A stretch of DNA of 64,000 bases from Escherichia coli. GTDB lineage: Bacteria > Pseudomonadota > Gammaproteobacteria > Enterobacterales > Enterobacteriaceae. Numbering within the stretch: the first letter of the stretch is position 1; each line of letters begins with the position of its first letter. The stretch lies in the NCBI GenBank assembly GCA_002099625.1, contig GCA_002099625.1_4857.1; one strand, given 5' to 3'. A program made the translations under genes and the position numbers. The notes below the pieces were generated by a model, which did not search any database, was not told the origin of the DNA, and saw nothing but the letters and a program-made list of their open reading frames with translations. Shown here in pieces: positions 11,938 through 63,649 of the stretch.

Positions 11938-13716
11938 TTAGCGGCCGATTTTAGCAATGTCTTCTTCGGTCGGTCTGATGTACGGGTCCAGTTTAGGATT
12001 CCGCATCATTACCAAACTTGGGTTGGTCTTCATGTACGGGTTGAGGATGTTCGCCTTAAACGGTGCCGACTTAGGAATATAATAGACGTTACCACATTCC
12101 AGATGCGACGCGGATGCGTGCTTAGTACGGTCGTTCAAGTTAACGGTCTTGCCTCCTTTCTTCGAACGCTTAGCATCGGTTTCGGTTTGACCGATGGCGT
12201 GCGTAGACACTGCCAATACCATTGATTCTGTAGAGGCATTGAAGAAACTGATACCGCCGTTGCTCGTAATGGTGCGCATCACCAGATTGAGCACGATCTG
12301 TTTGTTCAGTGCGTCTCGAATAGACTTCGCCGCTGTCTCTGGAGTCCGATGTTCCAACTGCCCCAGCTTCCAACGTATTTTCGAGATCGTTGTGGTAAAG
12401 CCACGTTGGCCCAACAGTAAGTAATCGGTTACCGTGAGACGTTTTCCGTACATAGACGGAATATCATCTTGTTTGGTAAGACGAGTACGCACCATCAGCT
12501 GCGTGGTATACCAGAGGAAATCAAACATATCCAAATCATCAGGGATGGACGGATCGTTTGCCATCAGCTCACCACGGAAGGTGCTGTTGACATAGCGTTC
12601 ACATTCCTGGAAGTGGCTGTCCATACTGCGACTCAGTTCGATATCCGAAGGCTTCAGTCCGCGAATACTGCGGCCCAACACTTCACGCCAAGACGCTGCA
12701 GAGTTGAGGTTTGCAATATCTTCGTCCATTGCCATTTCATTAATCTGTGTAAACAGCCCCGGCAGTGTTGGTGCACGACCGTTCTTACTGTTCTGTTTAC
12801 CTGCGTAATAGTGCGCCGCTTTGAAGAATGCGGCAGTCGCTACCAGCAACAGATGTTCGTTTTGATCCCAACGCCCTGCATCGGTGTTAGGCATATCTTC
12901 ACGTTTAACCAACAGCACGTACTGGATGGTCTTCGCGAGTTGTGGCTCACCGGATTGAATCACCACATACTTCGTTAAGTCCACATCACGTACTTTAATT
13001 GCTGGCCAAATCGCCACATCAACGCCCGCATAACGCTTCACGGCTTGTTTAAAGCCATAACGCCCAAAGAGCCAATACATCAGTGGCTTCTCATCGGTGT
13101 CGTGTCCAATCTGTCCGGTTGAGACAAACAGATTCGATGTACCTGGCAAGAACAGCTGCTCAGGGCGACCATTCACCAGAATCTTCGTTGGTTTCTTACA
13201 GAACTTGATCGACACCTTGCGAGTGAAGTCAAAGTTAATAAAGATACCACCATGCTCACGACATATACCAGGTTGATGGATTACAGGTGCTACGTGGTAC
13301 GTTGTACCATAGTAGTTCATTAAGCCGCCACGACGAATAAACGGCAGGCTCATTGGTCGTTGTACCGGGCGAGGATCACCTGGAACTCGGAACGAGGCCA
13401 TTACCATATACGTGTCAGTGGATGAGATGTTAATAATTGACCGGCCACGATTATTTCGTGAATTGTTATCCGACTTCGATAACTTAAAGATAAAAGCTTC
13501 AAACGGCGACATTTGGCGACAACCTAGTACCGTTAACCCTTCTGGTAATTTCGGGTTATCGATTTCATCATACGTCAACTCACGACGTAGAATGGTTGCC
13601 ACACGATCATGTATCCCATCTTTAGCTTGTGTGTACCCAACTCCTTCTGCAATTGCACGATTAAAAGGCACTATTTCGCCTGCCTCTTTAATCTTCCTAA
13701 TCGCATCTTTAAACAC
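11938..13716 (-). CDS. hypothetical protein (592 aa)
   Basis: Long ORF on coding strand; no motif recognised. Confidence 0.55.
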   Translation of the reverse strand: MFKDAIRKIKEAGEIVPFNRAIAEGVGYTQAKDGIHDRVATILRRELTYDEIDNPKLPEGLTVLGCRQMSPFEAFIFKLSKSDNNSRNNRGRSIINISSTDTYMVMASFRVPGDPRPVQRPMSLPFIRRGGLMNYYGTTYHVAPVIHQPGICREHGGIFINFDFTRKVSIKFCKKPTKILVNGRPEQLFLPGTSNLFVSTGQIGHDTDEKPLMYWLFGRYGFKQAVKRYAGVDVAIWPAIKVRDVDLTKYVVIQSGEPQLAKTIQYVLLVKREDMPNTDAGRWDQNEHLLLVATAAFFKAAHYYAGKQNSKNGRAPTLPGLFTQINEMAMDEDIANLNSAASWREVLGRSIRGLKPSDIELSRSMDSHFQECERYVNSTFRGELMANDPSIPDDLDMFDFLWYTTQLMVRTRLTKQDDIPSMYGKRLTVTDYLLLGQRGFTTTISKIRWKLGQLEHRTPETAAKSIRDALNKQIVLNLVMRTITSNGGISFFNASTESMVLAVSTHAIGQTETDAKRSKKGGKTVNLNDRTKHASASHLECGNVYYIPKSAPFKANILNPYMKTNPSLVMMRNPKLDPYIRPTEEDIAKIGR

Positions 13717-14771: not shown

Positions 14772-14786
14772 AGATAATATCTATCT
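14772..14786 (-). promoter_or_regulatory. conserved 15-mer AGATAATATCTATCT (copy 1 of 5), putative phage promoter
   Basis: Exact 15-mer shared with four other sites; 39 nt upstream of the ATG of 13728..14732 on the minus strand. Confidence 0.55.
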
Positions 14787-14837: not shown

Positions 14838-15536
14838 TTAGGGTATTAGGCGTTGGGCTATTTCGCGGAGTTGGTCGCGGGTTAAATCAGCCAACTTCTG
14901 GTCGCCGAAGCCCAACTTCAGACCCAGCTCGTATCCAGCTTGCGGATACGTGTTCGTGTTTGCTACTGAGAGGAGTGCATCGGCTATCTTTACCATCGTT
15001 AACTCGAGAGACGCATACGGGGCGGGGATCGGCTGATTCACGATTTGGTAATTATAACGCACTGCGGCGTTATCGTAGTCAAACTCCATCCTTCTGCCGA
15101 GAACGTTAAACGACTCCGCAGAATAACTACCAAATGGGTGATTGGCTTTTTCCCACAAATCTTTCCGTTCAGTAAACCCAGTCGCGAAGTTCTGACGTAT
15201 GGTGTCGAATATTTGCGTTGCCTGGCTAGGGTGTATATTTTTCAGCTCATTGTAGTCGTAGTCGGCGATGGAATATAGAGTGAACACAACACCGTTTATA
15301 TTTAACTGCGGATAATCCATCCGCAGACTATCATCACCTTGTAAATGAAGTTCCCACATCCTCACCCACTGCAATATCGCACTTACCGCATCGTGACTGA
15401 GATAAAAATTAGTAGGTTCTTCAGAATTTTCACGGAAGGGAACAGAGCATTCCGATGCAAAAAAGCCGGCTGCCATAAATCCTCTGCCGTCGAACATAGG
15501 CGCAACTAATCTTGATTTTTCTAAATTGATTACCAT
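14838..15536 (-). CDS. hypothetical protein
   Basis: 232-aa ORF, ATG with AAGGAGA RBS; promoter motif 40 nt upstream, terminator further upstream. Confidence 0.55.
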   Translation of the reverse strand: MVINLEKSRLVAPMFDGRGFMAAGFFASECSVPFRENSEEPTNFYLSHDAVSAILQWVRMWELHLQGDDSLRMDYPQLNINGVVFTLYSIADYDYNELKNIHPSQATQIFDTIRQNFATGFTERKDLWEKANHPFGSYSAESFNVLGRRMEFDYDNAAVRYNYQIVNQPIPAPYASLELTMVKIADALLSVANTNTYPQAGYELGLKLGFGDQKLADLTRDQLREIAQRLIP

Positions 15537-15576: not shown

Positions 15577-15591
15577 AGATAATATCTATCT
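15577..15591 (-). promoter_or_regulatory. conserved 15-mer AGATAATATCTATCT (copy 2 of 5), putative phage promoter
   Basis: Exact 15-mer; sits between the capsid-candidate terminator (15602-15640) and the start of 14838..15536, 40 nt from the ATG. Confidence 0.55.
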
Positions 15592-17969: not shown

Positions 17970-17981
17970 TTCAAGTTTACC

Positions 17982-18506: not shown

Positions 18507-18520
18507 TTTAAGGATGCTCC

Positions 18521-22640: not shown

Positions 22641-22664
22641 CACCTAGGTAATATATATCTGAAA
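22641..22664 (-). promoter_or_regulatory. conserved element CACCTAGGTAATATATATCTGAAA (copy 1 of 2), putative phage promoter
   Basis: 24/24 identity with 31146-31169 and similar over ~40 bp; about 50 nt upstream of the ATG at 22588; minus-strand reading contains TATATATTAC. Confidence 0.5.
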
Positions 22665-30338: not shown

Positions 30339-31100
30339 TTACGCTGCTGGTTCTTCAGCGGTTTTCACTTCAACTGGTTTCATCAACGAGTTCGCACAGT
30401 CGAAGATAGCATCCAGGAAACCACGGAACGGCTTCATGGCTTCACGCTGGGCGTTCTGACGTTCTTCTTCAATTGCTTCTTCTTGCGCCTGAATTTCTTC
30501 AGCAGTCAGCTCTGGGTGTTCCGTCATGCTTTCTGCCAGGGTCATCACTTTCGGCTGCGCATTCAGAATCGGAATACGGCGGATGACCTTGGTGATATTC
30601 CCGAGCTTCATGCCACCCAGCATGGTATCGAACAGCGTACCGAAATCTTGCAGTGGGTCTTCGCTGATTTCCAGTACCGCCGGAGTCGCAACCAGACCAA
30701 AGGCAATGACCAATTCAACGGCAGTGTCAGTGACGTGCGCAGCGAACGGGGTGTCTTCCATCTGCAGGTAATTGTTGCCATTATAGGTCACCGGAATGAA
30801 TTTGATTTCTTCCCCTTTCTTCAGTCGCAGTGTATCGACTGCGGCTTTGTACTGAACTTCGTACAGTTCCGGTTTAACACCGTCAACGTTATCCAGTGTA
30901 AAGAGCAGGTCACCAACCGCCATACGGCGCGGCAGTTTGCGTTTGTTGATTTCGCGCAGCCAGACTTGTAAGCCGGTGAATTGAATTGGGGACAGTCTAA
31001 TTTTAAAGCCGTTGGTTGCTTGCAGGATAGCACCGTCGTCTTCGCTACGTTCGATAGAGCCATTAGCCAGAGTAAGCAGATTGATAGTTTTCATTTTCAT
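30339..31100 (-). CDS. hypothetical protein
   Basis: 253-aa ORF; first gene downstream of the second copy of the 24-bp promoter motif. Confidence 0.5.
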   Translation of the reverse strand: MKMKTINLLTLANGSIERSEDDGAILQATNGFKIRLSPIQFTGLQVWLREINKRKLPRRMAVGDLLFTLDNVDGVKPELYEVQYKAAVDTLRLKKGEEIKFIPVTYNGNNYLQMEDTPFAAHVTDTAVELVIAFGLVATPAVLEISEDPLQDFGTLFDTMLGGMKLGNITKVIRRIPILNAQPKVMTLAESMTEHPELTAEEIQAQEEAIEEERQNAQREAMKPFRGFLDAIFDCANSLMKPVEVKTAEEPAA

Positions 31101-31145: not shown

Positions 31146-31169
31146 CACCTAGGTAATATATATCTGAAA
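31146..31169 (-). promoter_or_regulatory. conserved element CACCTAGGTAATATATATCTGAAA (copy 2 of 2), putative phage promoter
   Basis: 24/24 identity with 22641-22664; lies between the terminator 31187-31227 and the ATG at 31100, about 45 nt upstream. Confidence 0.5.
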
Positions 31170-46799: not shown

Positions 46800-48098
46800 T
46801 TAGGTGATGTGGAATTTAGGGATGTACTCTTTAACCACGGTTTCACGACCGTGCATCGCACCCATTGCAGTGGTCATAACGTTCGAGAAGCCGGAAGAGA
46901 TATCCGCAGCGATTGCCCGTGGCTCTTCTGCTTTGTGTGCAGAGGCGCACGCCGCACAACAGTCTACGTGACCTTGCTGACATAAGATGGGTCGGCGGAG
47001 TCGAACAACTTTACCAAATTGAGTTTTCAAATACTCTTCAGTAAGTTGGGTAACTTTACCGTTAATCATCGCGTTCATGCCAACATAACGCTTGTAGTTA
47101 TACTGGTTAATTACAAGTGCATGTGTCAGTTTTGTCCCGCAATCTCCAGGCACGATTTTGTGGTTCTGGAAGATCATCTGGATGATACGTACTTGCTCCC
47201 CGCCCTTGGCAGTTTCTGCACCACGCATGAAGGAACCTTCTCGCGTATCATTGAATTTCTCTACCAGATACTTCATCCCGGTCTGATCAACTTCCATCAG
47301 ACTCGTTGGGATTAAGGTAAAATCTGCCCCTTCTTTAAAAGCGGTCTGAATACCGTACATCAGCATCAGCTTACGGCGACGCATACGCGCTTTAGGCGAG
47401 CTGTAGAACTCAACGGACTGGTCGCCACTCAACCACTCTTTATCAAGTTCGTCGAGAGCTTTTTCAATCATAACGATAACCGCAGGGTTATCCAGCTCGT
47501 CTTTATGCTTCAACAGCAACGCATCACGTACCTTATACGCGTCAGGATGCGTTGTAAGGCTTCTAATAGTACCGGTTGGGGCTATCCCACGACACAACGG
47601 GGCAAGCTCGTGTAGACCCCCTACAAAGCGTCCTATCATGTATGGTCGAATCGCGTCTTCGTTGTCTGGATCGGTGTCATCATATTCCACACAACGTTCG
47701 TACATCTCTTTACGGTAGGCTAGCGGGTCACGAGACTCTGCCAGATACGGGAGACGGGTACCGAAAGCGTAATAGATAGCAATCCAGTTAAAGACATAGC
47801 GACCCACGGTAGTCGGAATAGGACCAGCTAAACCTGGGTACATCTCAGGACGCAATTCAAACTGCTCTTCCGGCACGAACAGCTCTTCATCTTTTTTGCA
47901 CCCTTCAATCGGCACCCACTTGGTTTCTTCGTTTTCCCAGTAATGGGGCAAGCCGTCAATGTAGTTCAGGTCGTATTGCTCAGGTGGCTCACCTTTTTCA
48001 TTAAAGATAGCCACGTTGAAAACCGCAATACGCCACACCAGTCTACGCCAAGCTTCTGCTTTACACGCAGCGACCAGATAATCAATCTTGTTCATCAT
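46800..48098 (-). CDS. hypothetical protein with Cys-rich C-terminal cluster (432 aa)
   Basis: Long ORF; C-terminal CQQGHVDCCAACASAHK suggests a metal-binding site. Confidence 0.55.
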   Translation of the reverse strand: MMNKIDYLVAACKAEAWRRLVWRIAVFNVAIFNEKGEPPEQYDLNYIDGLPHYWENEETKWVPIEGCKKDEELFVPEEQFELRPEMYPGLAGPIPTTVGRYVFNWIAIYYAFGTRLPYLAESRDPLAYRKEMYERCVEYDDTDPDNEDAIRPYMIGRFVGGLHELAPLCRGIAPTGTIRSLTTHPDAYKVRDALLLKHKDELDNPAVIVMIEKALDELDKEWLSGDQSVEFYSSPKARMRRRKLMLMYGIQTAFKEGADFTLIPTSLMEVDQTGMKYLVEKFNDTREGSFMRGAETAKGGEQVRIIQMIFQNHKIVPGDCGTKLTHALVINQYNYKRYVGMNAMINGKVTQLTEEYLKTQFGKVVRLRRPILCQQGHVDCCAACASAHKAEEPRAIAADISSGFSNVMTTAMGAMHGRETVVKEYIPKFHIT

Positions 48099-52078: not shown

Positions 52079-52462
52079 TTAACTTGCATCGTGTGGAACA
52101 GTCACCCAATCGTGCCATTTTTCAGAGTAAAGCCGATAAGCCATCTTTGGATTCTGATCGACGCTACCGGCCGGGTTCTCATTCCACAACACGTACGTAT
52201 ATAACTCGTACGACGAAGTGTTACGGATACTTGACGTGCGGGTGACGTAGTACGTCAACCCGCGTTGGTTAAGGAACAGGCCGCTGTAATGTTCAGTGAC
52301 CATGTAGTAGTGAAACGCCTGGTTGATAGTGGCGTCGGTGCAGAGTTTCTTAGCGACGTCTTCTACGCCGGGATACGCCTTTAGAATGTTTTCGAGAAAA
52401 CTTGCTAAAGTCATTCCGATGTAGGGTGGCAGCGGCTCTGCTGGACGCGGCGGAGTGAGCAT
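52079..52462 (-). CDS. hypothetical protein
   Basis: 127-aa ORF; overlaps the 3' end of the helicase ORF in another frame, so the exact start is uncertain. Confidence 0.35.
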   Translation of the reverse strand: MLTPPRPAEPLPPYIGMTLASFLENILKAYPGVEDVAKKLCTDATINQAFHYYMVTEHYSGLFLNQRGLTYYVTRTSSIRNTSSYELYTYVLWNENPAGSVDQNPKMAYRLYSEKWHDWVTVPHDAS

Positions 52463-54056
52463 GTGATTTCCTTACAACGTAGGGGGATGTCGCGATACGG
52501 AACGACAATACGACATCCTTGAGTGATTTCTGGCGGGCATTCAGGTAATTGCAATGCTTCGGTACGTTATACGCATGGAATAACCACACCGTTGGGTCTA
52601 TTTCACCCCATTCGTTGTGGAGAATCTTACGTGGACGACCGGCCATCTGTTCGTTCAGTTGCTGGTCTTCTACCGGGGTTGAAATGTACATGTGTACCAA
52701 CCCAGGTTTATCGACCGCAGTCCCCGCTTTCCCCGGTGTGGAGATAGAGAAGTCTGCTTGGATAAAGTCGTCATACGAATCGCCTGCATTATATTTCGCC
52801 ACCATCAACGGATGGAATACAGGGTCACGCGATAACTTATCTTTCACATACTCGGTAAAGAACTCACACATCGCTACCGTAGCAAAGAGTATCAAACATT
52901 TTTGGCCAGGTTGATACCGTTTAAGGAACGATTTCTCAACCACATCCCAGATCATGTTCGCGTATTCTAAATGCAAGTTCTCTTTAATCAGCTTCCCTTC
53001 GAAGAGTTTGTGGTTATACGGCGTCATCTTCGACGCCCACCACGCAAACTTCTTATCATCCAGTCGATAGTACAACGCCTTCACGTCAACCACCGGAATG
53101 ATTGGAATACTGATTCGGTACTCCATTGGGAAACGTTCTAAATACCGCTCCGCGATAAAGGCTTTACTGCTACCCGGCTTAAGGGTTGCAGACATCTCTA
53201 TCGATGCCGGAGGGTTCAACATTATACCAGCCATGTAAACGAGGTGAAAATGCTCGTGCACCTCATCCATCGCCACCAGACCCACACCCAGAACATCATA
53301 AAACGTATCCAGGTCCACAGGGTTAGTCGCAGCAGTGTTAATGTACTCCTTCAGGAAACGCTGTAGAGAGACCGTGGGGAGGATTATTACCTTAATACCA
53401 CGACTATCTAACTCTCCCGACTTACCCATCTCCAGCGCGTCGTAAATCGCCTGTACGCCTGTACAAACTAACACCTCGTCACGAAGTATACGAAGTCCTG
53501 TTTCATCATCACAGACGTCAAACAGCCATTTGGGAACGTACGACGGACGGTGAATCAATGCGGTACGGGTTCCCCGTTTAACCATCGACTTCATACACGA
53601 CTTCGTCTTCCCACGACCTGTCTGAATGGCGAAGATTGTCTGTGGTCGGTTTGGATCGGACGCTGCATCCACAACCTCGTTCTGATAGTAGAAACGCGAC
53701 TCCGGATCGCTTTCTACCATCGAGAAGCCGTAGTTATCAAATGTACAGCAGTAAGGTGTTCCTCGCTCAGGATGGTGCTCTGTCAGCTTGTACTGAAAAG
53801 CATATTCAATTGCTGCTCGTTGGAGGATATGTTTAATCTTCTCAGCGAACACTTTATGGAAAATGAACGTCCTTAAAGACGGAATGTGGGCGTAGTACGC
53901 GTCACCGCGTTCCGTAGTTATTCGTCCATGTTGCTTGCCCATCTTTGGGGCGTGCATATTCTCTTCGGCCCACGCGAGTATGGCCCTTTCAGCCTGGCGG
54001 ATAGGGACTTCAACCCGTACCCCCATACTCGTGTAAGTCATTTGAATTTCTACCAT
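52350..54056 (-). CDS. superfamily-2 DExH-box helicase
   Basis: Walker A AIQTGRGKTKS; Walker B/DExH LVAMDEVHEH; motif III MSATLK; motif VI-like QMAGRPRK. Track start at 54113 translates the terminator hairpin; the ATG at 54056 (MVEIQMTYTS...) is the likelier start. Confidence 0.7.
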   Translation of the reverse strand: MVEIQMTYTSMGVRVEVPIRQAERAILAWAEENMHAPKMGKQHGRITTERGDAYYAHIPSLRTFIFHKVFAEKIKHILQRAAIEYAFQYKLTEHHPERGTPYCCTFDNYGFSMVESDPESRFYYQNEVVDAASDPNRPQTIFAIQTGRGKTKSCMKSMVKRGTRTALIHRPSYVPKWLFDVCDDETGLRILRDEVLVCTGVQAIYDALEMGKSGELDSRGIKVIILPTVSLQRFLKEYINTAATNPVDLDTFYDVLGVGLVAMDEVHEHFHLVYMAGIMLNPPASIEMSATLKPGSSKAFIAERYLERFPMEYRISIPIIPVVDVKALYYRLDDKKFAWWASKMTPYNHKLFEGKLIKENLHLEYANMIWDVVEKSFLKRYQPGQKCLILFATVAMCEFFTEYVKDKLSRDPVFHPLMVAKYNAGDSYDDFIQADFSISTPGKAGTAVDKPGLVHMYISTPVEDQQLNEQMAGRPRKILHNEWGEIDPTVWLFHAYNVPKHCNYLNARQKSLKDVVLSFRIATSPYVVRKSHAHSAASSRAAATLHRNDFSKFSRKHSKGVSRRRRRR

Positions 54057-54070
54057 GCTGCCCCTCTTCG

Positions 54071-54099
54071 CACAAAAAAAGAGGGGCGCAAGGCCCCTC
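54071..54099 (-). terminator. intrinsic terminator downstream of 54103..56208, overlapping the helicase RBS
   Basis: Hairpin GAGGGGC-gcaa-GGCCCCTC (54081-54099) followed on the minus strand by TTTTTTTGTG; the downstream CGAAGAGGGG can alternatively pair with the 3' arm. Confidence 0.55.
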
Positions 54100-54102
54100 G
54101 GT

Positions 54103-56208
54103 TTACAACTCAATTACCACAGCGGCTCCTAGGTCATCGTACAACGATGCCGGGATTTTGTACTCGGTATAAAAACCAACGCGATCGATATTCCCCTGCT
54201 GTCCTTCAAACAACAACATCGGAATTGCCGAGCGCAAACTAATGAGCGTGTTGTGATCGACAAACCGTTTCCCGGTGGCATTAGTAGAATCCTCACTGTC
54301 AAATCCTACTGCCGGGAACGGATTGGTTGGCGACTCTACACGAGATATCGCCAACATAATCGCAATATGCGTCATCGGTATACCACTCAGCTTACGCTGG
54401 ATATACTTAAACGTGTCCATCAACGCATAAGTACACTGTTTCTCTGTAGCACCACCCATCTCAACCAACGTCACTGGTTTCACACGACCTTGTTTCTTGT
54501 TCAGCTTCACAGTCGATGCCGTGTTGATGATTTCCACAATGTCTTCGTTCTTATCGGCAGCAATCGAACGGAGCTTGGTTTCTAAGCCGGCTACGAACTC
54601 TGCCATCGATTCAGAACGGTTGGTGTAGACCAGGACCGGGTGTTTCGGGTTCCATCCTTTTAAGGGGATTTCTACTGTCTTCTTCTCGATACGAATGTTC
54701 GCTCGTTGTTTCAAGAAGTAGTGCAGGAACGGTTTAGAGAAGTTCCCACAAACACCCATTCGCACATCGATAGAATCCGCAGCGATTATCTGCCCATCTT
54801 CTAAACGACGTTGGAAAGTTAAGTCGGTGATTTCTGGTAATGCCGTTTCATCAATTGCATCGAGATCTTCATGATACGCAATCTGGCTCAGCTCCGAATA
54901 AATTTTGTCGGTAACAACCAACTCGTATTCTGACCAATTCCCACGCTGTGGTTTTGGCAGCAAGCACAACCCTTTCAGAGAGTTATGTTTGTATTCGGTC
55001 ATATACTCACGCATACGTGGGGTGAGTACCAGGTTGAGCAGATAACGCAAGAAGTCAAGGTGCTTGGTAGAGAGAATTCCCTGTGTACCCTTTTCCGAGA
55101 TGGACGTGGACGCCAGGTGACCTGGTGACGTACCTTCAGAGAGGTTATAAATCAAATCCCCCATACAGGTCGCACAGATGGACTGATTCGCCATCTCTTT
55201 ACAGGTCATGGCACTACGGAAGACCAGCGGTTTGCCAACCAGGTCTGCGTATCCACCTTTCTCAAATCTCAACCACGGACCATTATCGCCTTCTAAACGA
55301 TAACGCATCCCCACCATCGCTTTATAGGCACGCTCATCCAGCTGCGTATCCTTAAACGTGTAGCGGTGTGCGTGAGTTGTACCGCAGTCGTCGTACGTGA
55401 AATACATCAGTACGTTTGCTGCCAACTGCAGTTTACGTGAGGCGTATTCTGCTTCGGCAATCTTGTCAGTGTTGTACAAGTGGGAACGTGAAGTTGCACC
55501 GGATTCTTTCAAACGCGAAATAACCGAGTGCATTCCGGTAAAGAAGCCTTCCCACACCTGATTGGTGTATACACGTGAGTCAATTTCTGACGTTTTACCA
55601 CGCACGAAGGCTTGCAGTACCTGGTTCATCTTCACAGTACCGTCCAGTACCGACATCACGACCGGGTTATACCGTAGCGCAGGGTCTTTGAAGATTTTCT
55701 CGATAAGCTTGTACGCTTCTTCAACCATATCCTGACCATCTTCATCGTAGCCAGTAGGGTATTGCACTTCCCACTGACGGATGAGTTCGAAGTTCGGGTG
55801 GTCGTAGATCTCCATCATCGTATCAAAGTCGATTGTCGTACAATAGGACAGCAAGTTCTTCACTGTCATGTTGAACGCATCGGCGTAGACATGTTGACTC
55901 AGGATATAACGCGTTTCAGCAAGGTCGACACCTGCTTTACGGGCCAGTACCGCTGCTTCCGACATAAAGTCCAGATGCAGGTCATCTGTTGCTACCTGAC
56001 CTGGACGATACGCCATGGTCGATGGAGTGGGCACCTGCGGATACAGACGCGACACACCCCAATACGGCCAGCTGAGTTTGATGTGGCGACTAGACATTTC
56101 CAACGACTTACCATCGTCGAATGTCACGTAATAACGCCCGCGTAGTTTCCACACCTGATCAGAGTTAAGCATACGCAAATCACGTACGTGTACAGAACGA
56201 CCCGCCAT
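54103..56208 (-). CDS. hypothetical large protein (701 aa); possible RNA polymerase beta-prime-like C-terminal fragment
   Basis: TAATG overlap with the RNAP beta fragment gene; EKGTQGILSTKH weakly resembles the beta-prime trigger-loop motif GTQLTMRTFH. The RNAP assignment is tentative and the NADFDGD motif is absent. Confidence 0.5.
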   Translation of the reverse strand: MAGRSVHVRDLRMLNSDQVWKLRGRYYVTFDDGKSLEMSSRHIKLSWPYWGVSRLYPQVPTPSTMAYRPGQVATDDLHLDFMSEAAVLARKAGVDLAETRYILSQHVYADAFNMTVKNLLSYCTTIDFDTMMEIYDHPNFELIRQWEVQYPTGYDEDGQDMVEEAYKLIEKIFKDPALRYNPVVMSVLDGTVKMNQVLQAFVRGKTSEIDSRVYTNQVWEGFFTGMHSVISRLKESGATSRSHLYNTDKIAEAEYASRKLQLAANVLMYFTYDDCGTTHAHRYTFKDTQLDERAYKAMVGMRYRLEGDNGPWLRFEKGGYADLVGKPLVFRSAMTCKEMANQSICATCMGDLIYNLSEGTSPGHLASTSISEKGTQGILSTKHLDFLRYLLNLVLTPRMREYMTEYKHNSLKGLCLLPKPQRGNWSEYELVVTDKIYSELSQIAYHEDLDAIDETALPEITDLTFQRRLEDGQIIAADSIDVRMGVCGNFSKPFLHYFLKQRANIRIEKKTVEIPLKGWNPKHPVLVYTNRSESMAEFVAGLETKLRSIAADKNEDIVEIINTASTVKLNKKQGRVKPVTLVEMGGATEKQCTYALMDTFKYIQRKLSGIPMTHIAIMLAISRVESPTNPFPAVGFDSEDSTNATGKRFVDHNTLISLRSAIPMLLFEGQQGNIDRVGFYTEYKIPASLYDDLGAAVVIEL

Positions 56209-58445
56209 TATTTATCCTCCCGAATTGGACGCACTAATTCAAAACCTTCACAGCGATGGATGTTACGTATCATCCTGTCAATCTGCGAATCACCCATTGG
56301 TAGTTTCTTACGATCGACCAGCACCCCTGGATTGGTTGGTGTTGGCGAGTTATACAGCCCCGTTACGATCGCACGGTGTACCGCTGGGTTATTAGCGCGG
56401 TCATGAGTTTCGGGGAAGTTGCCCGGACCAAAGCCGTCGGTAAGACGCTGCTCGGAAGGACCACCCCACTTCAACCCTTTCAGGTTAATCGGATATGAAC
56501 CACGTCCTTGGTTGGATGCATCAATACAACCCAAATAGTTCGTGTACATCGACGAGATACTGGAGAACTCACGACCGGTTTTATCCAGGCGCAGAGTCTC
56601 TACCATGCCGACGTAGAACTGGTTCTTCGTCCACTCTTTCTCACCCTGATAGTTAGTAATCAGTAGCTTAGACTTGCGTGGTGCATACTCGCCTAGAGCA
56701 CGGCAGATTTCTACCTGGGTGGCATTCAATTCGTGGGGAAGCCAGATACGAATCGTGAAGTCGTAAATCTCTTTAAAGAGTTCCAGACGTGACCCAGTAT
56801 CCGGGTGACTGGCATTGAGATAGAATGTCCAGCGTGGGTTATAGCGATCGATATAGTCCATCAGGATTTCCCAGGCTTCATCAACCTGGTTGGCGGCAAG
56901 TAATGGTTTCAACCGCATCTTCAACTGCTCGGATGCAGCAGACCAATACATGTGGAACAGCGCAGCATAAGTCGAACGACGAATTACGGCGTTCATGGAA
57001 CGAATGACATGCACACGTTCTCCGAACTCGTTAATCGGCATTTCTTCATCAGGCCGCACTGCGCCCACGATACCTTTTGTACCTGAACGGTCGGTGATTT
57101 TCGATGAGACGGTAACTGGGATTGGATAACGTACCACGATGCGTATCGTGTAACTACCAATTGGGTCCCAGAGACCACGCTGAACCGGCTGCGCCAGTTT
57201 GTTCAACACGTTCTTATCAGCAGAACGGTTATACTCGCCTTTGCGCATGGCTTCATCGTATTCACGACCAATCTCTTCACGGAAGTCGTTATAGACTTCA
57301 TACGTCTCAGAACAGAACGCCTTGTCGAGAATCTCAAACGCTTTCGGTGACCAGACAATATTCTTGTCCTTGGACATCGCAAAATAGAACCGCACGATAT
57401 CATTGTAAAAACGTTTCAAAGCGTTCGCGTAGTGATCTAACTCGCGTTTGTTCTCTTCGGTACATGCGATATTGTTAACACCACGATCGCATTTGGTTTC
57501 GTCCCGCCATACCTGAATATCAACGACACGAGAACCAGTACGTTCCATCTTTTCAAAGTCGCCAGCCTGACGCGCTTTGTAATGCTCAGGGTCGGCATCA
57601 ACATACTCACAACGGTCGAAGTGCGGAGAGATATGTTGTGTTTCGCCCACGTGTGAGTCAATAGCCGCCCACAGCTTATCGAAACGACGCGCGGCTATAA
57701 CCAACCCATCATCGCGAATTGCCTGTCCTTTATTGGGCAGGTACTGTGGTCGACGAACGCCATCAATACCCGTTGTCCCATACGTATCAAGCAGGTACTC
57801 GTCGTCGCGCAAGGTAAAGTCGATTGCACGCAAACCATAAGCGTGCATCGCCTTCGCTGCAGTTTCGGAGATGGTGTACGAGTCCTCGATAATGTCCGGG
57901 TGCGACATTGTCACAGTGTGCAGGTTGACCCCATCGACAAACTCACCGTCTTTCTGTGCCGGCAGCACGGTAAGCATTTCATCTTTTTCCAGGTGCTGAG
58001 TCTGCCCGCGCAGCAACGCCTGAAGTTTCCCAGTAGCCTCTTTCTTAGACGAGAAAATGTTATCGTGGTTGGTGTAATACTTGATATCGATTACATCAAT
58101 CATCACTTTGCGCTGGTTGGTTAAATCTGCGCGCGTGAAGAAGATAACATGTTGGAGCGGATCGTGATCCCCTTCACGACCATAGCGTGCAAAAACAGCT
58201 GCACGAGTAACACCTTCTTTGGTTGTGTAACTGCACACGGTACCACTATCTTCCACGATATCGTTAAAACAATAATCGTGGTAGTTCACATCAGCGCCGG
58301 TAAAATGGATAGTCGGGTCTGGATTGTCCAGTGGTACCGCCGACTTCATATGTCCACCCACCATTGAGGCACGTGCCCCAGATACGCCAGTGATATTCAC
58401 CTCACGGTCAGCAACGCTTGACATGAGTTCGACTGGTGTTTTCAT
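56208..58445 (-). CDS. multisubunit RNA polymerase beta subunit, C-terminal fragment (745 aa)
   Basis: DRSGTKGIVGAVRPDEEMPINEFGERVHVI aligns with the conserved bacterial RpoB block [30 protein letters not shown]; downstream LKGLKWGGPSEQR resembles LGGKAQFGGQR. ATG with AAGGAG RBS; promoter 15-mer 30 nt upstream. Confidence 0.65.
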   Translation of the reverse strand: MKTPVELMSSVADREVNITGVSGARASMVGGHMKSAVPLDNPDPTIHFTGADVNYHDYCFNDIVEDSGTVCSYTTKEGVTRAAVFARYGREGDHDPLQHVIFFTRADLTNQRKVMIDVIDIKYYTNHDNIFSSKKEATGKLQALLRGQTQHLEKDEMLTVLPAQKDGEFVDGVNLHTVTMSHPDIIEDSYTISETAAKAMHAYGLRAIDFTLRDDEYLLDTYGTTGIDGVRRPQYLPNKGQAIRDDGLVIAARRFDKLWAAIDSHVGETQHISPHFDRCEYVDADPEHYKARQAGDFEKMERTGSRVVDIQVWRDETKCDRGVNNIACTEENKRELDHYANALKRFYNDIVRFYFAMSKDKNIVWSPKAFEILDKAFCSETYEVYNDFREEIGREYDEAMRKGEYNRSADKNVLNKLAQPVQRGLWDPIGSYTIRIVVRYPIPVTVSSKITDRSGTKGIVGAVRPDEEMPINEFGERVHVIRSMNAVIRRSTYAALFHMYWSAASEQLKMRLKPLLAANQVDEAWEILMDYIDRYNPRWTFYLNASHPDTGSRLELFKEIYDFTIRIWLPHELNATQVEICRALGEYAPRKSKLLITNYQGEKEWTKNQFYVGMVETLRLDKTGREFSSISSMYTNYLGCIDASNQGRGSYPINLKGLKWGGPSEQRLTDGFGPGNFPETHDRANNPAVHRAIVTGLYNSPTPTNPGVLVDRKKLPMGDSQIDRMIRNIHRCEGFELVRPIREDK

Positions 58446-58475
58446 TCGTAAATGCTCCTTTTGGTTACCTCGGTA

Positions 58476-58490
58476 AGATAATATCTATCT
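58476..58490 (-). promoter_or_regulatory. conserved 15-mer AGATAATATCTATCT (copy 3 of 5), in a 66-bp divergent intergenic region
   Basis: Exact 15-mer; 30 nt from the minus-strand ATG at 58445 and 21 nt from the plus-strand ATG at 58512, so it could serve either gene. Confidence 0.55.
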
Positions 58491-58511
58491 GTTTTATTTT
58501 AAGGAGAGACG

Positions 58512-58835
58512 ATGCTAGATAAATTTGCTACCTTATCCGAAATAATACCTTCGCCTGATTCGACCAAGTATAAGGTGTTGCATGACTATACAGACTTCCT
58601 TCGCAAACACCCAGATACTACAGAAGAAGTTGTTGACCCAAAATATGCCTACCCAGAGGTACACAGTTTCTACGCGTACTGTCGTCTCAAACAGTACGAT
58701 AATAGTATTATTTATCCGATGATGTTAATGAACGGAATTTCTACTCCGTTTGATTTCACGCCAGAGATAAGGACCTTATTGGTTCCTAGTGTCGGTGTGG
58801 TAAGTAACATCTTATCGACTATCGTAGAATCTTGA
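58512..58835 (+). CDS. hypothetical small protein (107 aa), visibly more AT-rich than its neighbours
   Basis: ATG with AAGGAGAG RBS; lone plus-strand gene; lower GC and different codon usage by eye. Confidence 0.5.
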   Translation: MLDKFATLSEIIPSPDSTKYKVLHDYTDFLRKHPDTTEEVVDPKYAYPEVHSFYAYCRLKQYDNSIIYPMMLMNGISTPFDFTPEIRTLLVPSVGVVSNILSTIVES

Positions 58836-58866
58836 AAAAAAGAAGGGACGCCCAGTCCCTTCTTTC
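58834..58866. terminator. terminator hairpin between convergent genes
   Basis: Hairpin GAAGGGAC-gccca-GTCCCTTC (58842-58862) with an A-run upstream (U-tract for the minus strand) and a weak TTTCT downstream. Confidence 0.5.
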
Positions 58867-58872
58867 TAACGC

Positions 58873-60240
58873 TTAACGTAAATTAGCTGATGAGAATGGT
58901 AGGTTGCCTAAACTGCTGCTACTTCCGCCACCTAAACCACCCAGACCACCTAACACGTCACTACTCCCTCCTAAGAGGTTGGTGCTACCGCCGCCCAACT
59001 GCGTGCTACCCCCCAAGAGATTATTACTACTTCCCAGCAAACCAGAACCCAGACCACTTTCTTTCGTCACCGCATTACCACGCAGCGCCTCACCGAGAGA
59101 CAGTTCTTTAATTGTCCCTTTCGGTAAATGGCCGTTGTTCTCACGCAGCGCTTCCTGAATCTTCGGTGCTAACGCATTGAAGCTATTAGCTGAAGACGCC
59201 TGTTGCGCTTTCTTCGCACGGAAATAGTTTACCGGATCGTTGAGATCAAGATTTTCCTGCGGAGCTTGTTGAGAAGCTAAAGCAACGACCGGCTTTGTGC
59301 CGGCAGGTGTACGCCCGATACGGAAATCCGTTGCGGTGGTGTCTGTTGCCTGATCGGTGCGTGGGCCGGTATTATACGGCAGAGTTTGGATAACGTTATC
59401 ATAAACGCTCATGTTATCCAGTTGGCCAATCCATTCTTCTTCTAACGGACGCAGTGGAGTGTGGTCACGCAGACCACGAACCACTTGATTGTAGTTGGTC
59501 ACGTATTGTGCCCAACCGCGTGCCAAAGAACCGAAGTACGGACGCGGATCGTTAGAACCCGTAACCGAAGGATACCAACCAAACACTGCAGTGAGCAGGT
59601 TAAAGATAATGACCTTATCCTGCTTACGCTGGAGCTTGGCACCGAAGAATGTTGCCGTACCATCCAGCGACTCTTCTTCAAACATGTGTTTGTAGTTCGC
59701 CACACGGATATATTTGATACCTTCAATGGTCATATCGCTGGAGATGAAGATACTGGTGATCTTTGTCTTTTTATCTTCTTCCAGCAACCCGTAAACGTAG
59801 TTCTTCACTGCGTGCCAGCTCTGAACCAGTTTCTTATCCATCGTTGGATCTTTCAGGTCAGCACAAACCACATCGCTTAAAAACTTCTTGTACGCTGCCA
59901 GACGGATATTTTTTCCTTCGGCTGCTGTTTCCAAAATCGCATCGATTAACTCGAAGCTTTTCAGGAAGAGGTTCGCGTTGATGGCTTTCTTCAGGAAACG
60001 AATCGTTCCAGATTCGCCAGCCAGTACCGATTCACACAGTGGGTGGAACGCATGACATTCACTACCTTCGTCATCTTCCAACCCACGCTTAATCATCGCT
60101 GCAGTTGGAAGCACCAAGCGGCGCTTCACTTTGTTGTAGGTGAACATTGCCGGATGACCATCATCGATAGTCAGCATGTCACCTTCGAATCCGTATCCGA
60201 GCGAGGTCAGAAACGAACGGTAGAATTCAATCAATTTCAT
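58873..60240 (-). CDS. hypothetical protein with Gly/Leu/Ser-rich low-complexity C-terminal tail (455 aa)
   Basis: C-terminal ~60 aa GLGSGLLGSSNNLLGGSTQLGGGSTNLLGGSSDVLGGLGGLGGGSSSSLGNL... Confidence 0.55.
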   Translation of the reverse strand: MKLIEFYRSFLTSLGYGFEGDMLTIDDGHPAMFTYNKVKRRLVLPTAAMIKRGLEDDEGSECHAFHPLCESVLAGESGTIRFLKKAINANLFLKSFELIDAILETAAEGKNIRLAAYKKFLSDVVCADLKDPTMDKKLVQSWHAVKNYVYGLLEEDKKTKITSIFISSDMTIEGIKYIRVANYKHMFEEESLDGTATFFGAKLQRKQDKVIIFNLLTAVFGWYPSVTGSNDPRPYFGSLARGWAQYVTNYNQVVRGLRDHTPLRPLEEEWIGQLDNMSVYDNVIQTLPYNTGPRTDQATDTTATDFRIGRTPAGTKPVVALASQQAPQENLDLNDPVNYFRAKKAQQASSANSFNALAPKIQEALRENNGHLPKGTIKELSLGEALRGNAVTKESGLGSGLLGSSNNLLGGSTQLGGGSTNLLGGSSDVLGGLGGLGGGSSSSLGNLPFSSANLR

Positions 60241-60252
60241 GGTTAATAATCC

Positions 60253-61953
60253 TTAATCAATGAGACCGTTGCCGAGTCCGTTTCCGCCTATACCGCCTAA
60301 GCCACCACCCAGGTCAAGACCTCCAAGAGGATCTAAGCCACCTGTGTTAGTTGGAATGTTAGATAGCATTCGACCCCGGCCTTGGCCTTTCTCGAATTCT
60401 GTATAACCTTCTTCCACGGCTTTCAACAGCGTTGCGGTGTTCTGTGCCAGCTCACCAACGTATTTGAGATCGGTGGTGTTGCCGGTATGGAGACGGAATT
60501 GCATAAACGACGCGTAGGTGTAATATTCCAGCGGTTCGTCGTCGACACGGATTTCAATACGAGTAACGGTCCCCAACAATGCGGTGACCAGCATGTGGCA
60601 GCGAATATGGTTATGTTTAGTAACCTGAACCATCGCTTCTTTCATGTTCTGCAAGAAACGACGACCTAATGCAGCAGGTAACTGATGGTGCGTGATGCTG
60701 CTGACTGAGTTAGGAATAACTTCCAACGTAGGCTCTATCATGATATCTGTGTTGCGGTTATCAAAGACAAAGCTCACTTCACCAATCAGGTTACGTGACA
60801 TAATCGGCCCGATAGACATAGCCAGATCATACGCAACTAGACTACCCTGCGTGGAGAAGCCATTACGTCCAATCCAGTGGTCGGTTTGGTTAACCAGCCC
60901 TGCACCCAACCCACGGCGACTTGCCAGCGCCAGCGATTCACGGATACATTCATCCAACCGCATTGGGTTGACAATCGCATTACGCAAATCAGCCAAACGG
61001 AACGTCGCCTTACTGGTTGCTTTCCAACCGCCAGATACATCAGACATCCCGTTCTGGAGTGCTTGACGCATCGCAGCAATCAGTTCGTGGTTGCTGTAGT
61101 TACGGATAACACCACGCTGCTTCAATTCAGATTCAACGCCGATGGAGTTATTACCTGCAAAGAAGCTTTCCACGCTACCGAGTTCGGTATCTACCCCAGA
61201 GCTTGCCAGATACGCATTACTGATGGCAGATACGTAGTTTTCTGGACGCTGGAGTTGGGATACCATCAACTGTGGTGCAGAGCTACTGGTTGCGGATAGC
61301 ACAGAGTCGCTCGTTGGGACGAACTTCTCACCGCTATTCATTTCAATACGTTTTACCATGTCCGCTGCTTTCGCGATCGAAATGATATCTACCGTACTTT
61401 CTGTTTGACCTTCAACAGACAGCGCTTTCGATAAAACGTAGTTATCCAGTAGACGGAATGAGTCTGGGTTCAATGTTTTGCCGCCCAGGGCATCGTGTGT
61501 ATACGTTGCCTGTAAGCCGTAGATGTCGTTAATGTACAACACCATATCGTCCGGCAGCAGGCTACCCAGGCTGGTTTCTGCCTGACTGGTATAACCGGAT
61601 ACGATGTATTGCGTTTCCTGAGTGCGTGTTGCATTCAGAGGTTTAGCAATAAACACCGCCACGAAGTTAAAGATACCGGTATCACGTGATTCCCATTGGA
61701 ACTGTACAGGACGATTGTCATCATCGGACACGTTGATGAATGGACGCTCAAAACCATTCTGGGTGCCATCGAAGCCCACGATGGCAGATAATGCTTCTTG
61801 ATACTGCTGTGTTCCCACAGCTTTTTCCCCGCCCAGTTCAACCGCTGCTGCTAAGTCATCCAGTGCACCCGTCGATGCGTTAAAGCCGATGCGGCGACGA
61901 ACTTGCTCTGGAACATCGTAGACCGGATACATCAGTAGATTTACAAGCTGCAT
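60253..61953 (-). CDS. hypothetical protein with Gly/Leu-rich C-terminal tail (566 aa)
   Basis: C-terminus GGLDPLGGLDLGGGLGGIGGNGLGNGLID; adjacent to another Gly-tailed protein. Confidence 0.55.
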   Translation of the reverse strand: MQLVNLLMYPVYDVPEQVRRRIGFNASTGALDDLAAAVELGGEKAVGTQQYQEALSAIVGFDGTQNGFERPFINVSDDDNRPVQFQWESRDTGIFNFVAVFIAKPLNATRTQETQYIVSGYTSQAETSLGSLLPDDMVLYINDIYGLQATYTHDALGGKTLNPDSFRLLDNYVLSKALSVEGQTESTVDIISIAKAADMVKRIEMNSGEKFVPTSDSVLSATSSSAPQLMVSQLQRPENYVSAISNAYLASSGVDTELGSVESFFAGNNSIGVESELKQRGVIRNYSNHELIAAMRQALQNGMSDVSGGWKATSKATFRLADLRNAIVNPMRLDECIRESLALASRRGLGAGLVNQTDHWIGRNGFSTQGSLVAYDLAMSIGPIMSRNLIGEVSFVFDNRNTDIMIEPTLEVIPNSVSSITHHQLPAALGRRFLQNMKEAMVQVTKHNHIRCHMLVTALLGTVTRIEIRVDDEPLEYYTYASFMQFRLHTGNTTDLKYVGELAQNTATLLKAVEEGYTEFEKGQGRGRMLSNIPTNTGGLDPLGGLDLGGGLGGIGGNGLGNGLID

Positions 61954-61965
61954 TTTAAATACTCC

Positions 61966-63600
61966 TTAAGAATTAAACCATTCAACTTCTTCTAACTTGC
62001 GACGTGCATTCAACACCATAAACTCCGCCAGGCTATTGTGCAGTGACAAGTGAGGTATATAGTTTGGCTGATCCGTCTCACACTTCAGCAGCGCAGCTGC
62101 TTCTGGTGTAGCCCTGAGATGGAACAGATACGGGTTGATGTGATCCTTGTGTAACAAGGTCAGTGATTCCCGTGGTGTAGATTGCGGTTCGAGATTACGC
62201 GGGTTGCGATACTCCTGAAGATAATATCTATCTAAATCTGCTTTGAGTTCAGATCGAATTGGGTCGGCTGCATAACCGGCAGACATCTCAGAACGCACCA
62301 TATTGCAACTTAACAGTTGCGCAACGTCATACATTCCATAATTGAGATAAGTTGCCTGTGCCAACGCCATACCGTAGCGAAACGCTTCTGGCCCACATTC
62401 AGTATACGTCTTATAATGCGCGCTACGATGGAGTGCTAATGCGACTAACCATTCGTGCAACGTATAGACAGGACCGTCATGTGTTGCCAGTTGCGAATCA
62501 ATCAATAACTTAACATCTGCTGGAGCGGCATTATCCAGACGCATTGTTTTCAAGAAAGAGCGGTATTCTTTAAATACGTACTCGGTACGGACGTATTCTT
62601 TCATCTGTGCAGGAGAACGTGCCTGCACCAAATCCATGGCGTTTATCTTACCCTTTTCGCCATTGAATACCACACTTTCCGGATGCGCTTTTAACAGCAC
62701 CGGCTGGTTAGAGATTTTGTTTGCAAAACCTGTTTCAATCTCTTGTTTAACCAGAAAATACATGCCGGTGACGATATTGTTGTTAACCATGATTTCAACC
62801 GGTAATTCACCACCGACTTCACGGACAGCCAACAATTTAATAATAGCATACGCCAGGATATAATCTTCCATCATATCCGTGCCATAGCCCCGCACCGTAG
62901 CCAGTACCGACAAACTGGTGCTGTTCGTACCTTTGTTTGCCAGTTCTTTTTCTACCTTTTCCATCACTGTCTGTAGGAACCCACGCAGTTTCGGAATAGC
63001 AGGTAAAGACATGACTTCCGTGTCTTGAAGCATCTCCAGACAGTATGTCAGATTGTACACCATTTTCCGGTGTGTTTCGATTGGCAAGTTCTTACCTATC
63101 GGGAACGTCCCCATGGTGAGGAACACCGGAATATACGGTTTAATCATCAGAACCAGTATCAACAACTCGTAATAGTCCGGACGAATGTACGTCATCGCTT
63201 CCGGATAATTACTGTTCATTTCATCGTGCGTATCTTCCATGTTCTGCGGAATCCACAGCTTATCGATGGGATACAGCTTACGATACACTTCGGCCTTGTG
63301 GAACTTCGCAATCGTCTGCACAATCTTCGGCATGTGCTTACGCTGCGTTTCCGTCGATTCGTTTGCCAGCTCGTCCAGCATCAGATACGCCATGAACAGT
63401 TCATCTTGTTCGTCTGGCGTTAAATAATCCCACACGCGTTGTAATTCCATGAAGAGAATGTTGTCGCGTGCAATCTGTTTACCTTTAACAGTGATGTAGT
63501 CGGGTGCGTTGTTATCCTTCCGATAACGTAAGCCAATAAATGTGACCTCTTGACCGTGATGCTCGATTGTCATCCGGTCTTTAATCTTCGTAATTTTCAT
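61966..63600 (-). CDS. hypothetical protein (544 aa)
   Basis: ATG with GGAG RBS; promoter 15-mer 34 nt upstream; one further 15-mer copy is embedded in its 3' coding region. Confidence 0.55.
   Translation of the reverse strand: MKITKIKDRMTIEHHGQEVTFIGLRYRKDNNAPDYITVKGKQIARDNILFMELQRVWDYLTPDEQDELFMAYLMLDELANESTETQRKHMPKIVQTIAKFHKAEVYRKLYPIDKLWIPQNMEDTHDEMNSNYPEAMTYIRPDYYELLILVLMIKPYIPVFLTMGTFPIGKNLPIETHRKMVYNLTYCLEMLQDTEVMSLPAIPKLRGFLQTVMEKVEKELANKGTNSTSLSVLATVRGYGTDMMEDYILAYAIIKLLAVREVGGELPVEIMVNNNIVTGMYFLVKQEIETGFANKISNQPVLLKAHPESVVFNGEKGKINAMDLVQARSPAQMKEYVRTEYVFKEYRSFLKTMRLDNAAPADVKLLIDSQLATHDGPVYTLHEWLVALALHRSAHYKTYTECGPEAFRYGMALAQATYLNYGMYDVAQLLSCNMVRSEMSAGYAADPIRSELKADLDRYYLQEYRNPRNLEPQSTPRESLTLLHKDHINPYLFHLRATPEAAALLKCETDQPNYIPHLSLHNSLAEFMVLNARRKLEEVEWFNS
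62219..62233 (-). promoter_or_regulatory. conserved 15-mer AGATAATATCTATCT (copy 4 of 5), embedded in coding sequence
   Basis: Exact 15-mer inside 61966..63600 (encoding DRYYLQ), about 265 nt upstream of the start of 60253..61953; candidate internal promoter. Confidence 0.4.
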
Positions 63601-63634: not shown

Positions 63635-63649
63635 AGATAATATCTATCT
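63635..63649 (-). promoter_or_regulatory. conserved 15-mer AGATAATATCTATCT (copy 5 of 5), putative phage promoter
   Basis: Exact 15-mer 34 nt upstream of the ATG at 63600. Confidence 0.55.

Follow-up and report, generated by a model that had tools for sequence, protein, structure and literature searches.

Genes for the C-terminal beta and beta-prime subunits of a non-virion RNA polymerase in an SPN3US-type jumbo phage genome

Two adjoining polymerase genes

We analyzed a 64,000-nucleotide stretch (the window) of contig GCA_002099625.1_4857.1, filed under Escherichia coli, which carries two adjoining open reading frames (ORFs) for fragments of the large subunits of a multisubunit RNA polymerase (RNAP). 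Both lie on the minus strand, exactly where an earlier note, made from the sequence alone, had placed them. We put at about 95% the probability that they correspond to gp34 and gp35 of a jumbo phage of the SPN3US type and encode the C-terminal parts of beta (beta-C) and beta-prime (beta-prime-C) of a five-subunit non-virion RNAP (nvRNAP). The genes and the features at their borders, with distances in nucleotides (nt), are as follows.

56208..58445, minus strand: nvRNAP beta C-terminal subunit, 745 residues; SPN3US gp34 equivalent and phiKZ gp71-73 ortholog, with K449 and K457 in beta's double-psi beta-barrel (DPBB)
54103..56208, minus strand: nvRNAP beta-prime C-terminal subunit, 701 residues; SPN3US gp35 equivalent and phiKZ gp74 ortholog
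56206..56220, minus strand: gene junction, read directly as GGAGG (56220..56216), a 7-nt spacer and TAATG
58476..58490, minus strand: first copy of a 15-mer, 30 nt upstream of the beta-C ATG; putative early (virion-RNAP) promoter element
54074..54099, minus strand: intrinsic-terminator-like hairpin, GAGGGGC-cttgc-GCCCCTC followed by T7, 3 nt after the beta-prime-C stop, from a terminator scan

As a whole, the window shares about 99% identity with Salmonella phage SPN3US, of the genus Seoulvirus and the species Seoulvirus SPN3US. The earlier note had ascribed the split genes to a phiKZ-like jumbo phage, and this attribution was sound: the window belongs to Seoulvirus SPN3US, and its split beta and beta-prime subunits match those of the phiKZ nvRNAP. 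The 4343-bp region of the two genes is 99.0% identical to Proteus phage 7 and, over its whole length, 98.9% identical to SPN3US; 31 related jumbo-phage records match it over at least 80% of its length. ORF 56208..58445 is SPN3US gp34 (SPN3US_0034), annotated as 'putative DNA-directed RNA polymerase beta subunit 2', and ORF 54103..56208 is gp35 (SPN3US_0035), annotated as 'beta-prime subunit'.

Junction, upstream 15-mer and neighboring genes are the same in SPN3US, from which the pair differs by strain-level substitutions only (25 nucleotides in the beta-C gene and 24 in the beta-prime-C gene). These change 49 codons across both genes, 46 synonymously and three nonsynonymously, leaving one amino-acid difference in gp34 and two in gp35 and indicating strong purifying selection on both genes. 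This codon comparison was restricted to SPN3US and Proteus phage 7; Erwinia phage Stratton was dropped, as internal indels shift the register of the ungapped comparison. The 745-residue protein is identical to its Proteus phage 7 counterpart.

Homology and assignment to the non-virion enzyme

A block typical of RpoB had first drawn attention to the beta-C gene, and it is indeed present at residues 455-478 (GTKGIVGAVRPDEEMPINEFGERV), within the protein's sole Pfam match (PF00562, Rpb2 domain 6, residues 430-507), which scores 24.1 bits against a gathering score of 23.4. phrog_3295 matches the protein over its full length (E 6e-268). The earlier note had also called for a check of both proteins by profile hidden Markov models against RpoB and RpoC, and this was significant: with family alignments built from homologs down to about 21% identity and then used as profiles against the PDB, solved RNAP chains were matched over the full length by both families, phiKZ gp71-73 (7ogp_C) by beta-C at E 4.7e-97 and phiKZ gp74 (7ogp_D) by beta-prime-C at E 3e-119.

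Positions 4-630 of the beta-C profile are collinear with E. coli beta 657-1253 (E 7e-21), and the profile also reaches the second-largest subunits of archaeal, Pol I/III and vaccinia polymerases. The protein was thus rightly taken for a C-terminal fragment of beta, spanning approximately that part of the E. coli subunit and orthologous to phiKZ gp71-73. The DPBB lysines K449 and K457 align with phiKZ K386 and K394 and are invariant in 18 homologs; the landmarks used here (DPBB lysines, zinc cysteines, bridge helix and trigger helix) come from the phiKZ structure paper (PMC8287921). An AlphaFold2 model of the subunit (predicted local distance difference test, pLDDT, 79.8; predicted template-modelling score, pTM, 0.71) gave 8que_C as its top Foldseek match (9e-42, TM-score 0.65-0.69), along with AR9 7s00_C (2.5e-32) and E. 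coli and other bacterial beta subunits at about 1e-24.

For the 701-residue protein, phrog_3015 gives a full-length match (E 8e-241), and the Pfam match is to PF04998 (Rpb1 domain 5) at 17.1 bits, under the gathering score of 28.5. Through its positions 179-386 the profile aligns with residues 715-937 of E. coli beta-prime (E 1.7e-8) and with Thermus thermophilus beta-prime 1003-1242; it also reaches cyanobacterial RpoC2 131-343. The phiKZ gp74 bridge helix (242-279) maps to residues ~229-266 and its trigger helix (365-383) to 360-378, running on to H383, while the zinc cysteines C275, C336, C345 and C348 correspond to phiKZ gp74 C288, C341, C350 and C353 and are invariant in 19 homologs. What had been described as a possible beta-prime-like fragment is therefore the C-terminal half of beta-prime, with bridge helix, zinc site and trigger loop, and an ortholog of gp74. 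Its AlphaFold2 model (pLDDT 74.2, pTM 0.48) again had a phiKZ chain as its best Foldseek match (8que_D, 2e-28), with AR9 7s01_D at 1e-14 and bacterial beta-prime at about 1e-9.

The trigger-loop-like segment noticed in the raw sequence was confirmed as GTQGILSTKH at residues 374-383; within it Q376, L379, S380, K382 and H383 are invariant and T381 nearly so across 19 homologs, down to 21% identity. We take the E. coli counterpart to be GTQLTMRTFH (927-936), which would make H383 the equivalent of the trigger-loop His936, and the positions of E. coli Arg933 and Phe935 are then presumably Ser and Lys in the beta-prime-C family. Residues 379-383 (approximately 55060..55074 of the DNA, minus strand) read L-S-T-K-H, conserved also in phiKZ-like members, where E. 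coli presumably has M-R-T-F-H (932-936); hence the bacterial NTP-contacting arginine appears to have been replaced in this lineage.

Both proteins are thus full-length homologs, in sequence and in fold, of phiKZ gp71-73 and gp74 and of the cellular beta and beta-prime subunits, and the residues of the catalytic architecture are conserved: DPBB lysines, zinc cysteines, bridge helix, and a trigger loop with its histidine. Identity to the phiKZ nvRNAP subunits is just ~20-29% (PDB 7OGP, 7OGR, 8QUE, 9RJS; Yakunina 2015; de Martin Garrido 2021). The nvRNAP of Bacillus phage AR9 (PDB 7S00, 7S01, 7UM0, 7UM1) has the same split type of beta and beta-prime and supplies the second-best sequence and fold matches, but is a more distant relative than phiKZ; the AR9 enzyme recognizes uracil-containing promoters in the template strand (PMC7598289, PMC9209446). 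Cellular bacterial RpoB and RpoC share the homologous catalytic core at ~12-15% sequence identity, whereas here both large subunits are split and alpha, omega and a canonical sigma are absent. As in cyanobacteria (RpoC1/RpoC2), beta-prime is divided after the DPBB, and the site of the beta split is without a cellular counterpart (PMC7598289).

The pair sits in a gene cassette in which the best PHROG family of each tested window protein is that of its positional phiKZ counterpart, from gp68 to gp75.

61966..63600, minus strand: phiKZ gp68 counterpart, phrog_3209; sigma-like fifth nvRNAP subunit, equivalent to SPN3US gp30 (annotated hypothetical)
60253..61953, minus strand: phiKZ gp69/Imp1 counterpart, phrog_3141
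58873..60240, minus strand: phiKZ gp70 counterpart, phrog_3520 (BLASTP 6e-13)
56208..58445, minus strand: phiKZ gp71+gp73 counterpart, phrog_3295
54103..56208, minus strand: phiKZ gp74 counterpart, phrog_3015
52350..54113, minus strand: phiKZ gp75 helicase counterpart, phrog_16

The order SbcD ... gp68 - gp69 (Imp1) - gp70 - beta-C - beta-prime-C - helicase is common to SPN3US gp27-gp36 and phiKZ gp65-gp75. Virion mass spectrometry has assigned gp240, gp241, gp218, gp42 and gp244 of SPN3US to the virion RNAP (vRNAP), and the same work named gp35 as the beta-prime subunit of the nvRNAP and gp77 as an N-terminal fragment of its beta subunit (Thomas et al. 2016, J Virol, PMC5105663). On the grounds of the PHROGs, the phiKZ-like gene order and these published virion proteome assignments, we place the pair in the non-virion polymerase.

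Further polymerase fragments lie elsewhere in the window.

11938..13716, minus strand: nvRNAP beta N-terminal subunit (beta-N), 592 residues; SPN3US gp77 equivalent and phiKZ gp123 ortholog
46800..48098, minus strand: vRNAP beta-prime middle fragment, homolog of SPN3US gp42 and phiKZ gp80, phrog_2962

Because 46800..48098 belongs to the virion enzyme, the window holds parts of both phage RNAPs. The beta-N assignment rests on phrog_2943 (the phiKZ gp123 family, E 8e-188) and on 7ogp_E (E 3e-20). The gp68-like protein matches 7ogp_B over residues 47-434 (phmmer E 2.8e-6; pairwise BLASTP 1e-13), shares phrog_3209 with it, and its gene holds the same position in the conserved SbcD...helicase order. 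A search for the other fragments, which the earlier note had suggested, succeeded within the window for beta-N and not for the fragment bearing the DFDGD motif: no DFDGD or DxDGD occurs in any of the six frames of the window. That fragment is SPN3US gp23 (17704-19299), ~4-6 kb past the window's right end in the 99%-identical reference, which carries NGDFDGD and matches phiKZ gp55 (7ogp_A, E 5e-39) and E. coli beta-prime 329-480. With beta-N, the gp68-like protein, gp34 and gp35 in the window and gp23 in the reference, all five nvRNAP subunits are accounted for.

We also considered the SPN3US gp78 homolog (10230..11906, minus strand, 99.6% identical) as the sigma-like fifth subunit and rejected it: it has no PDB match by sequence or profile, hhalign finds it unlike both phiKZ gp68 and gp124, the phiKZ protein at the equivalent position, and the actual gp68 homolog is 61966..63600. 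The gp78 homolog lies 30-35 nt downstream of beta-N in seven of seven phages checked, and its family is confined to the SPN3US / Erwinia / Cronobacter clade. SPN3US gp78 is reported to be essential and non-virion, and its amber mutant lacks virion proteins (PMC5105663); that its role is tied to the nvRNAP or to late transcription is a guess.

Some neighbors of the pair deserve mention. phiKZ gp69 is Imp1, a protein-import factor of the phage nucleus; the Imp1 relationship of 60253..61953 is seen by the shared PHROG and gene order only, as pairwise BLASTP finds none. The Imp1-like and gp70-like genes are both 'hypothetical protein' in SPN3US, and Pfam gave nothing useful on the neighboring cassette proteins. 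A small, divergently oriented gp33-like gene (58512..58835), absent from this position in phiKZ, lies between the gp70-like gene and beta-C and is kept in the four relatives examined.

Weighing the alternatives

Several observations weigh against this reading or parts of it. Pfam by itself gives a threshold-level match for beta and a sub-threshold one for beta-prime, so that a refutation test run on Pfam only would be borderline. The beta-prime-C model has a low pTM, and its global TM-scores are 0.2-0.34 despite strong E-values, which we attribute to uncertain domain placement in the model. The overlap between the two genes is not kept in Vibrio phage pVa-21 (19-nt gap) or in phiKZ (30-nt gap), and an identical 1-nt overlap occurs in nine of 73 same-strand neighbor pairs of the SPN3US region, with overlap of any length in 20. 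Nor does the 15-mer stand directly upstream of the beta-prime N-terminal gene gp23 in SPN3US, so not every nvRNAP gene has its own copy. Finally, the promoter, terminator and coupling roles discussed below are ones that we infer from sequence.

The overlap itself is as the earlier note described it, with the stop codon TAA (56210..56208) sharing one base with the ATG at 56208..56206; it is 1 nt long also in SPN3US, Stratton and Erwinia phage Huxley, and 4 nt in Cronobacter phage CR5. Translational coupling of two stoichiometric partners is plausible on this arrangement but not distinctive, since the frequency of overlaps makes the junction typical of this phage's gene packing. It is quite possible, if not what we would expect, that the overlap reflects incidental compact packing and that beta-prime-C is translated independently from its own GGAGG. 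The good Shine-Dalgarno sequence with its 7-nt spacer ahead of the beta-prime-C ATG would serve such independent initiation, the commonness of overlaps in the region would fit it, and the distant relatives pVa-21 and phiKZ have ribosome-binding sites of their own within their 19-30-nt gaps. Against it, an overlap of 1 or 4 nt has been retained over four genera, at protein identities down to 58%, and in the phiKZ enzyme both products are present as stoichiometric partners (PMC4666361). None of this touches the identity of the subunits, only their coupling.

A quite different alternative is that both proteins belong to the virion-packaged polymerase, which transcribes early genes. The virion and non-virion sets are paralogous, and beta-prime-C does match the virion-type family phrog_2962 weakly (E 1.7e-6); yet that family is matched by 46800..48098 instead, at E 1e-175, the pair's best matches are to the families of phiKZ gp71-73 and gp74, with E-values of 1e-240 or lower, the gene order is that of the phiKZ nvRNAP cassette, and the published virion proteome gives the vRNAP to gp240, gp241, gp218, gp42 and gp244, with gp35 in the nvRNAP (PMC5105663). 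We therefore regard a virion role for the pair as very improbable and, in effect, already refuted.

Even less credible, and effectively refuted by conservation, is that the split is artefactual, whether it came from a sequencing error or frameshift, from an intein or unspliced intron, or from the decay into pseudogenes of cellular rpoB and rpoC acquired from a host. Interruptions do occur in the beta-C family, as the phiKZ ortholog contains an intron with an HNH endonuclease gene, but here both ORFs are uninterrupted, their length of ~690-760 residues is kept, down to ~22% identity, in dozens of phages and metagenomic contigs, their differences from SPN3US are nearly all synonymous, beta-C precedes the C-terminal half of beta-prime rather than its N-terminus, so that no simple frameshift could restore a cellular-type gene, the window has no Rfam intron match, and the purified phiKZ enzyme contains the products as separate polypeptides (PMC4666361). 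More broadly, Rfam at gathering thresholds and a tRNA scan returned nothing for the whole window, and thus no recognized intron or RNA element in or near the genes.

We are left with the pair as nvRNAP subunits that have the same PHROG families as in phiKZ, the same order of beta-C, beta-prime-C and helicase, and the same upstream gp68-gp69-gp70 cassette. The phiKZ intron, with its HNH endonuclease gene (gp72), splits beta-C inside the GxKG...MP block (the gp71 product ends '...FHGGN' and gp73 begins 'MPIDENG'), whereas the gene here is continuous; a 30-nt gap separates the two phiKZ genes where there is a 1-nt overlap here.

The proposed transcription unit

The exact 15-mer AGATAGATATTATCT upstream of beta-C has five copies in the window, each of them on the minus (coding) strand. 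Its other copies, and the identical variants with two mismatches, are as follows.

63635..63649, minus strand: 34 nt upstream of the gp68-like ATG
14772..14786, minus strand: at the head of the gp76-like / beta-N / gp78-like gene block
15577..15591, minus strand: upstream of ORF 14838..15536
62219..62233, minus strand: inside the gp68-like ORF 61966..63600, 265 nt upstream of the Imp1-like start (61953)
22646..22660 and 31151..31165, minus (coding) strand: two-mismatch variants, both AGATATATATTACCT

Matches with three or fewer mismatches number nine in the window against 1.26 expected, a count reached in none of 100 shuffles. The copy inside the gp68-like gene could serve the Imp1-like and gp70-like genes as an internal promoter. 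The two-mismatch variants probably also belong to this promoter-like class; that at 31151..31165 sits ~50 nt upstream of ORF 30339..31100. Upstream of beta-C, the position of the 15-mer core is kept in Stratton, Huxley and CR5, and SPN3US has more copies ahead of gp5, gp9, gp22 and gp30.

It has been reported that an AT-rich early-promoter motif of ~10 nt can be found in every jumbo phage that encodes an RNAP (PMC7598289). The 15-mer fits this motif and is likely a putative early promoter; it is consistent with early expression of the pair, but no proof of it. No early promoter of SPN3US mapped by experiment came up in a search of the literature, and a sigma-70 promoter scan of 53800..58900 gave four sites against 6.8 expected, showing no enrichment.

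One of the copies belongs to a variable segment. ORF 14838..15536 (minus strand, 232 residues, phrog_15414, function unknown), with its own exact 15-mer, lies in a ~600-bp segment flanked by the major capsid and gp76-like genes. This segment is missing from the SPN3US reference, judged by coordinate offset, and is found in SEGD1 and in many SPFM and SPLA genomes; it is a within-species presence/absence polymorphism.

At the other end of the pair, the hairpin folds at -14.7 kcal/mol (z -2.18). Stratton, Huxley and CR5 keep its stem but differ in the loop, and pVa-21 has an unrelated hairpin and T-run at the same place, suggesting a putative terminator. The helicase ORF 52350..54113, as called, starts at a TTG at 54113 and thereby overlaps both the end of beta-prime-C and the hairpin; the true start is more likely the ATG annotated in SPN3US, at ~54056, just past the hairpin and T-run and with GAGGGG upstream.

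With the 15-mer upstream of beta-C and the hairpin and T7 after beta-prime-C, the pair looks like a two-gene unit, and from this anatomy and the phiKZ and AR9 literature we can outline how it may work. The injected virion RNAP would transcribe the gp34 and gp35 genes early, as a two-gene unit that would start at the 15-nt AT-rich promoter-like element and end at the hairpin and T7, and the 1-nt overlap with the internal GGAGG would favor roughly equimolar synthesis of the two subunits. Five polypeptides would then assemble without alpha or omega, the gp68-like subunit acting in a sigma-like manner, and the nvRNAP would be imported into the phage nucleus to transcribe late genes, rifampicin-resistant and independent of the host. 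The phiKZ nvRNAP is a stable complex in which five separate polypeptides, all products of early genes, are present stoichiometrically, and it transcribes late promoters (PMC4666361); enzymes of the phiKZ/AR9 type are rifampicin-resistant and lack alpha and omega subunits (PMC4666361, PMC7598289); and phiKZ gp68 occupies the place of sigma and is required for promoter binding and formation of the active enzyme (PMC8287921).

A stronger version, in which beta-C and beta-prime-C form a dedicated bicistronic early operon with the perfectly conserved 15-mer promoter and the conserved intrinsic terminator as its borders, and in which the overlap, kept throughout the SPN3US / Erwinia / Cronobacter clade, enforces coupled, possibly co-translational assembly, strikes us as unlikely, if worth stating.

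Much of this was known before. Annotation, genetics and proteomics of SPN3US and the structure and biochemistry of the phiKZ and AR9 enzymes already establish the finding, which is ordinary because the genes were annotated and their phiKZ counterparts had been purified and solved by cryo-electron microscopy; the published structure and activity of the orthologous polymerases leave it little biological weight. Only the operon-level anatomy (15-mer, junction conservation, terminator) and the corrections to annotation are mildly new.

Those corrections concern product names, which differ among database records: 'beta subunit 2 / beta-prime subunit', 'alpha subunit' (Proteus phage 7) and 'hypothetical protein' (some SPFM). 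In Proteus phage 7 (MT679221, 30802-35144) both nvRNAP genes are labelled 'DNA-directed RNA polymerase alpha subunit', which is wrong because these phages have no alpha homolog; there the small divergent neighbor gene is labelled 'putative baseplate wedge protein', a name unsupported here (phrog_3455, function unknown). The genomes of Salmonella phages SPFM1, 5, 7-10, 12, 14 and 15 (LR5359xx) align to the window as ~17 short pieces per kb, and their predicted RNAP proteins have high HMMER scores but a BLASTP query coverage of just 3-9%, which suggests assemblies full of small indels or frameshifts and makes the SPFM protein entries unreliable. SPN3US gp30, gp31 and gp77 are still 'hypothetical protein' in the reference record. 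The 'alpha' labels of Proteus phage 7, the SPFM hypotheticals, and SPN3US gp30, gp31 (Imp1-like) and gp77 (beta-N) can now be cleaned up.

The case also illustrates that reading motifs in raw sequence can rightly spot an RNAP so divergent that Pfam barely detects it. For the phage itself, it gives an operon map that can be tested (candidate promoter in the 15-mer, junction and terminator) in a genetically tractable jumbo phage. If the dedicated-operon idea were true, the two C-terminal halves would together form the active-site cleft in an RNAP lacking an alpha assembly platform, and the adjacency of their genes would partly replace the missing assembly subunits.

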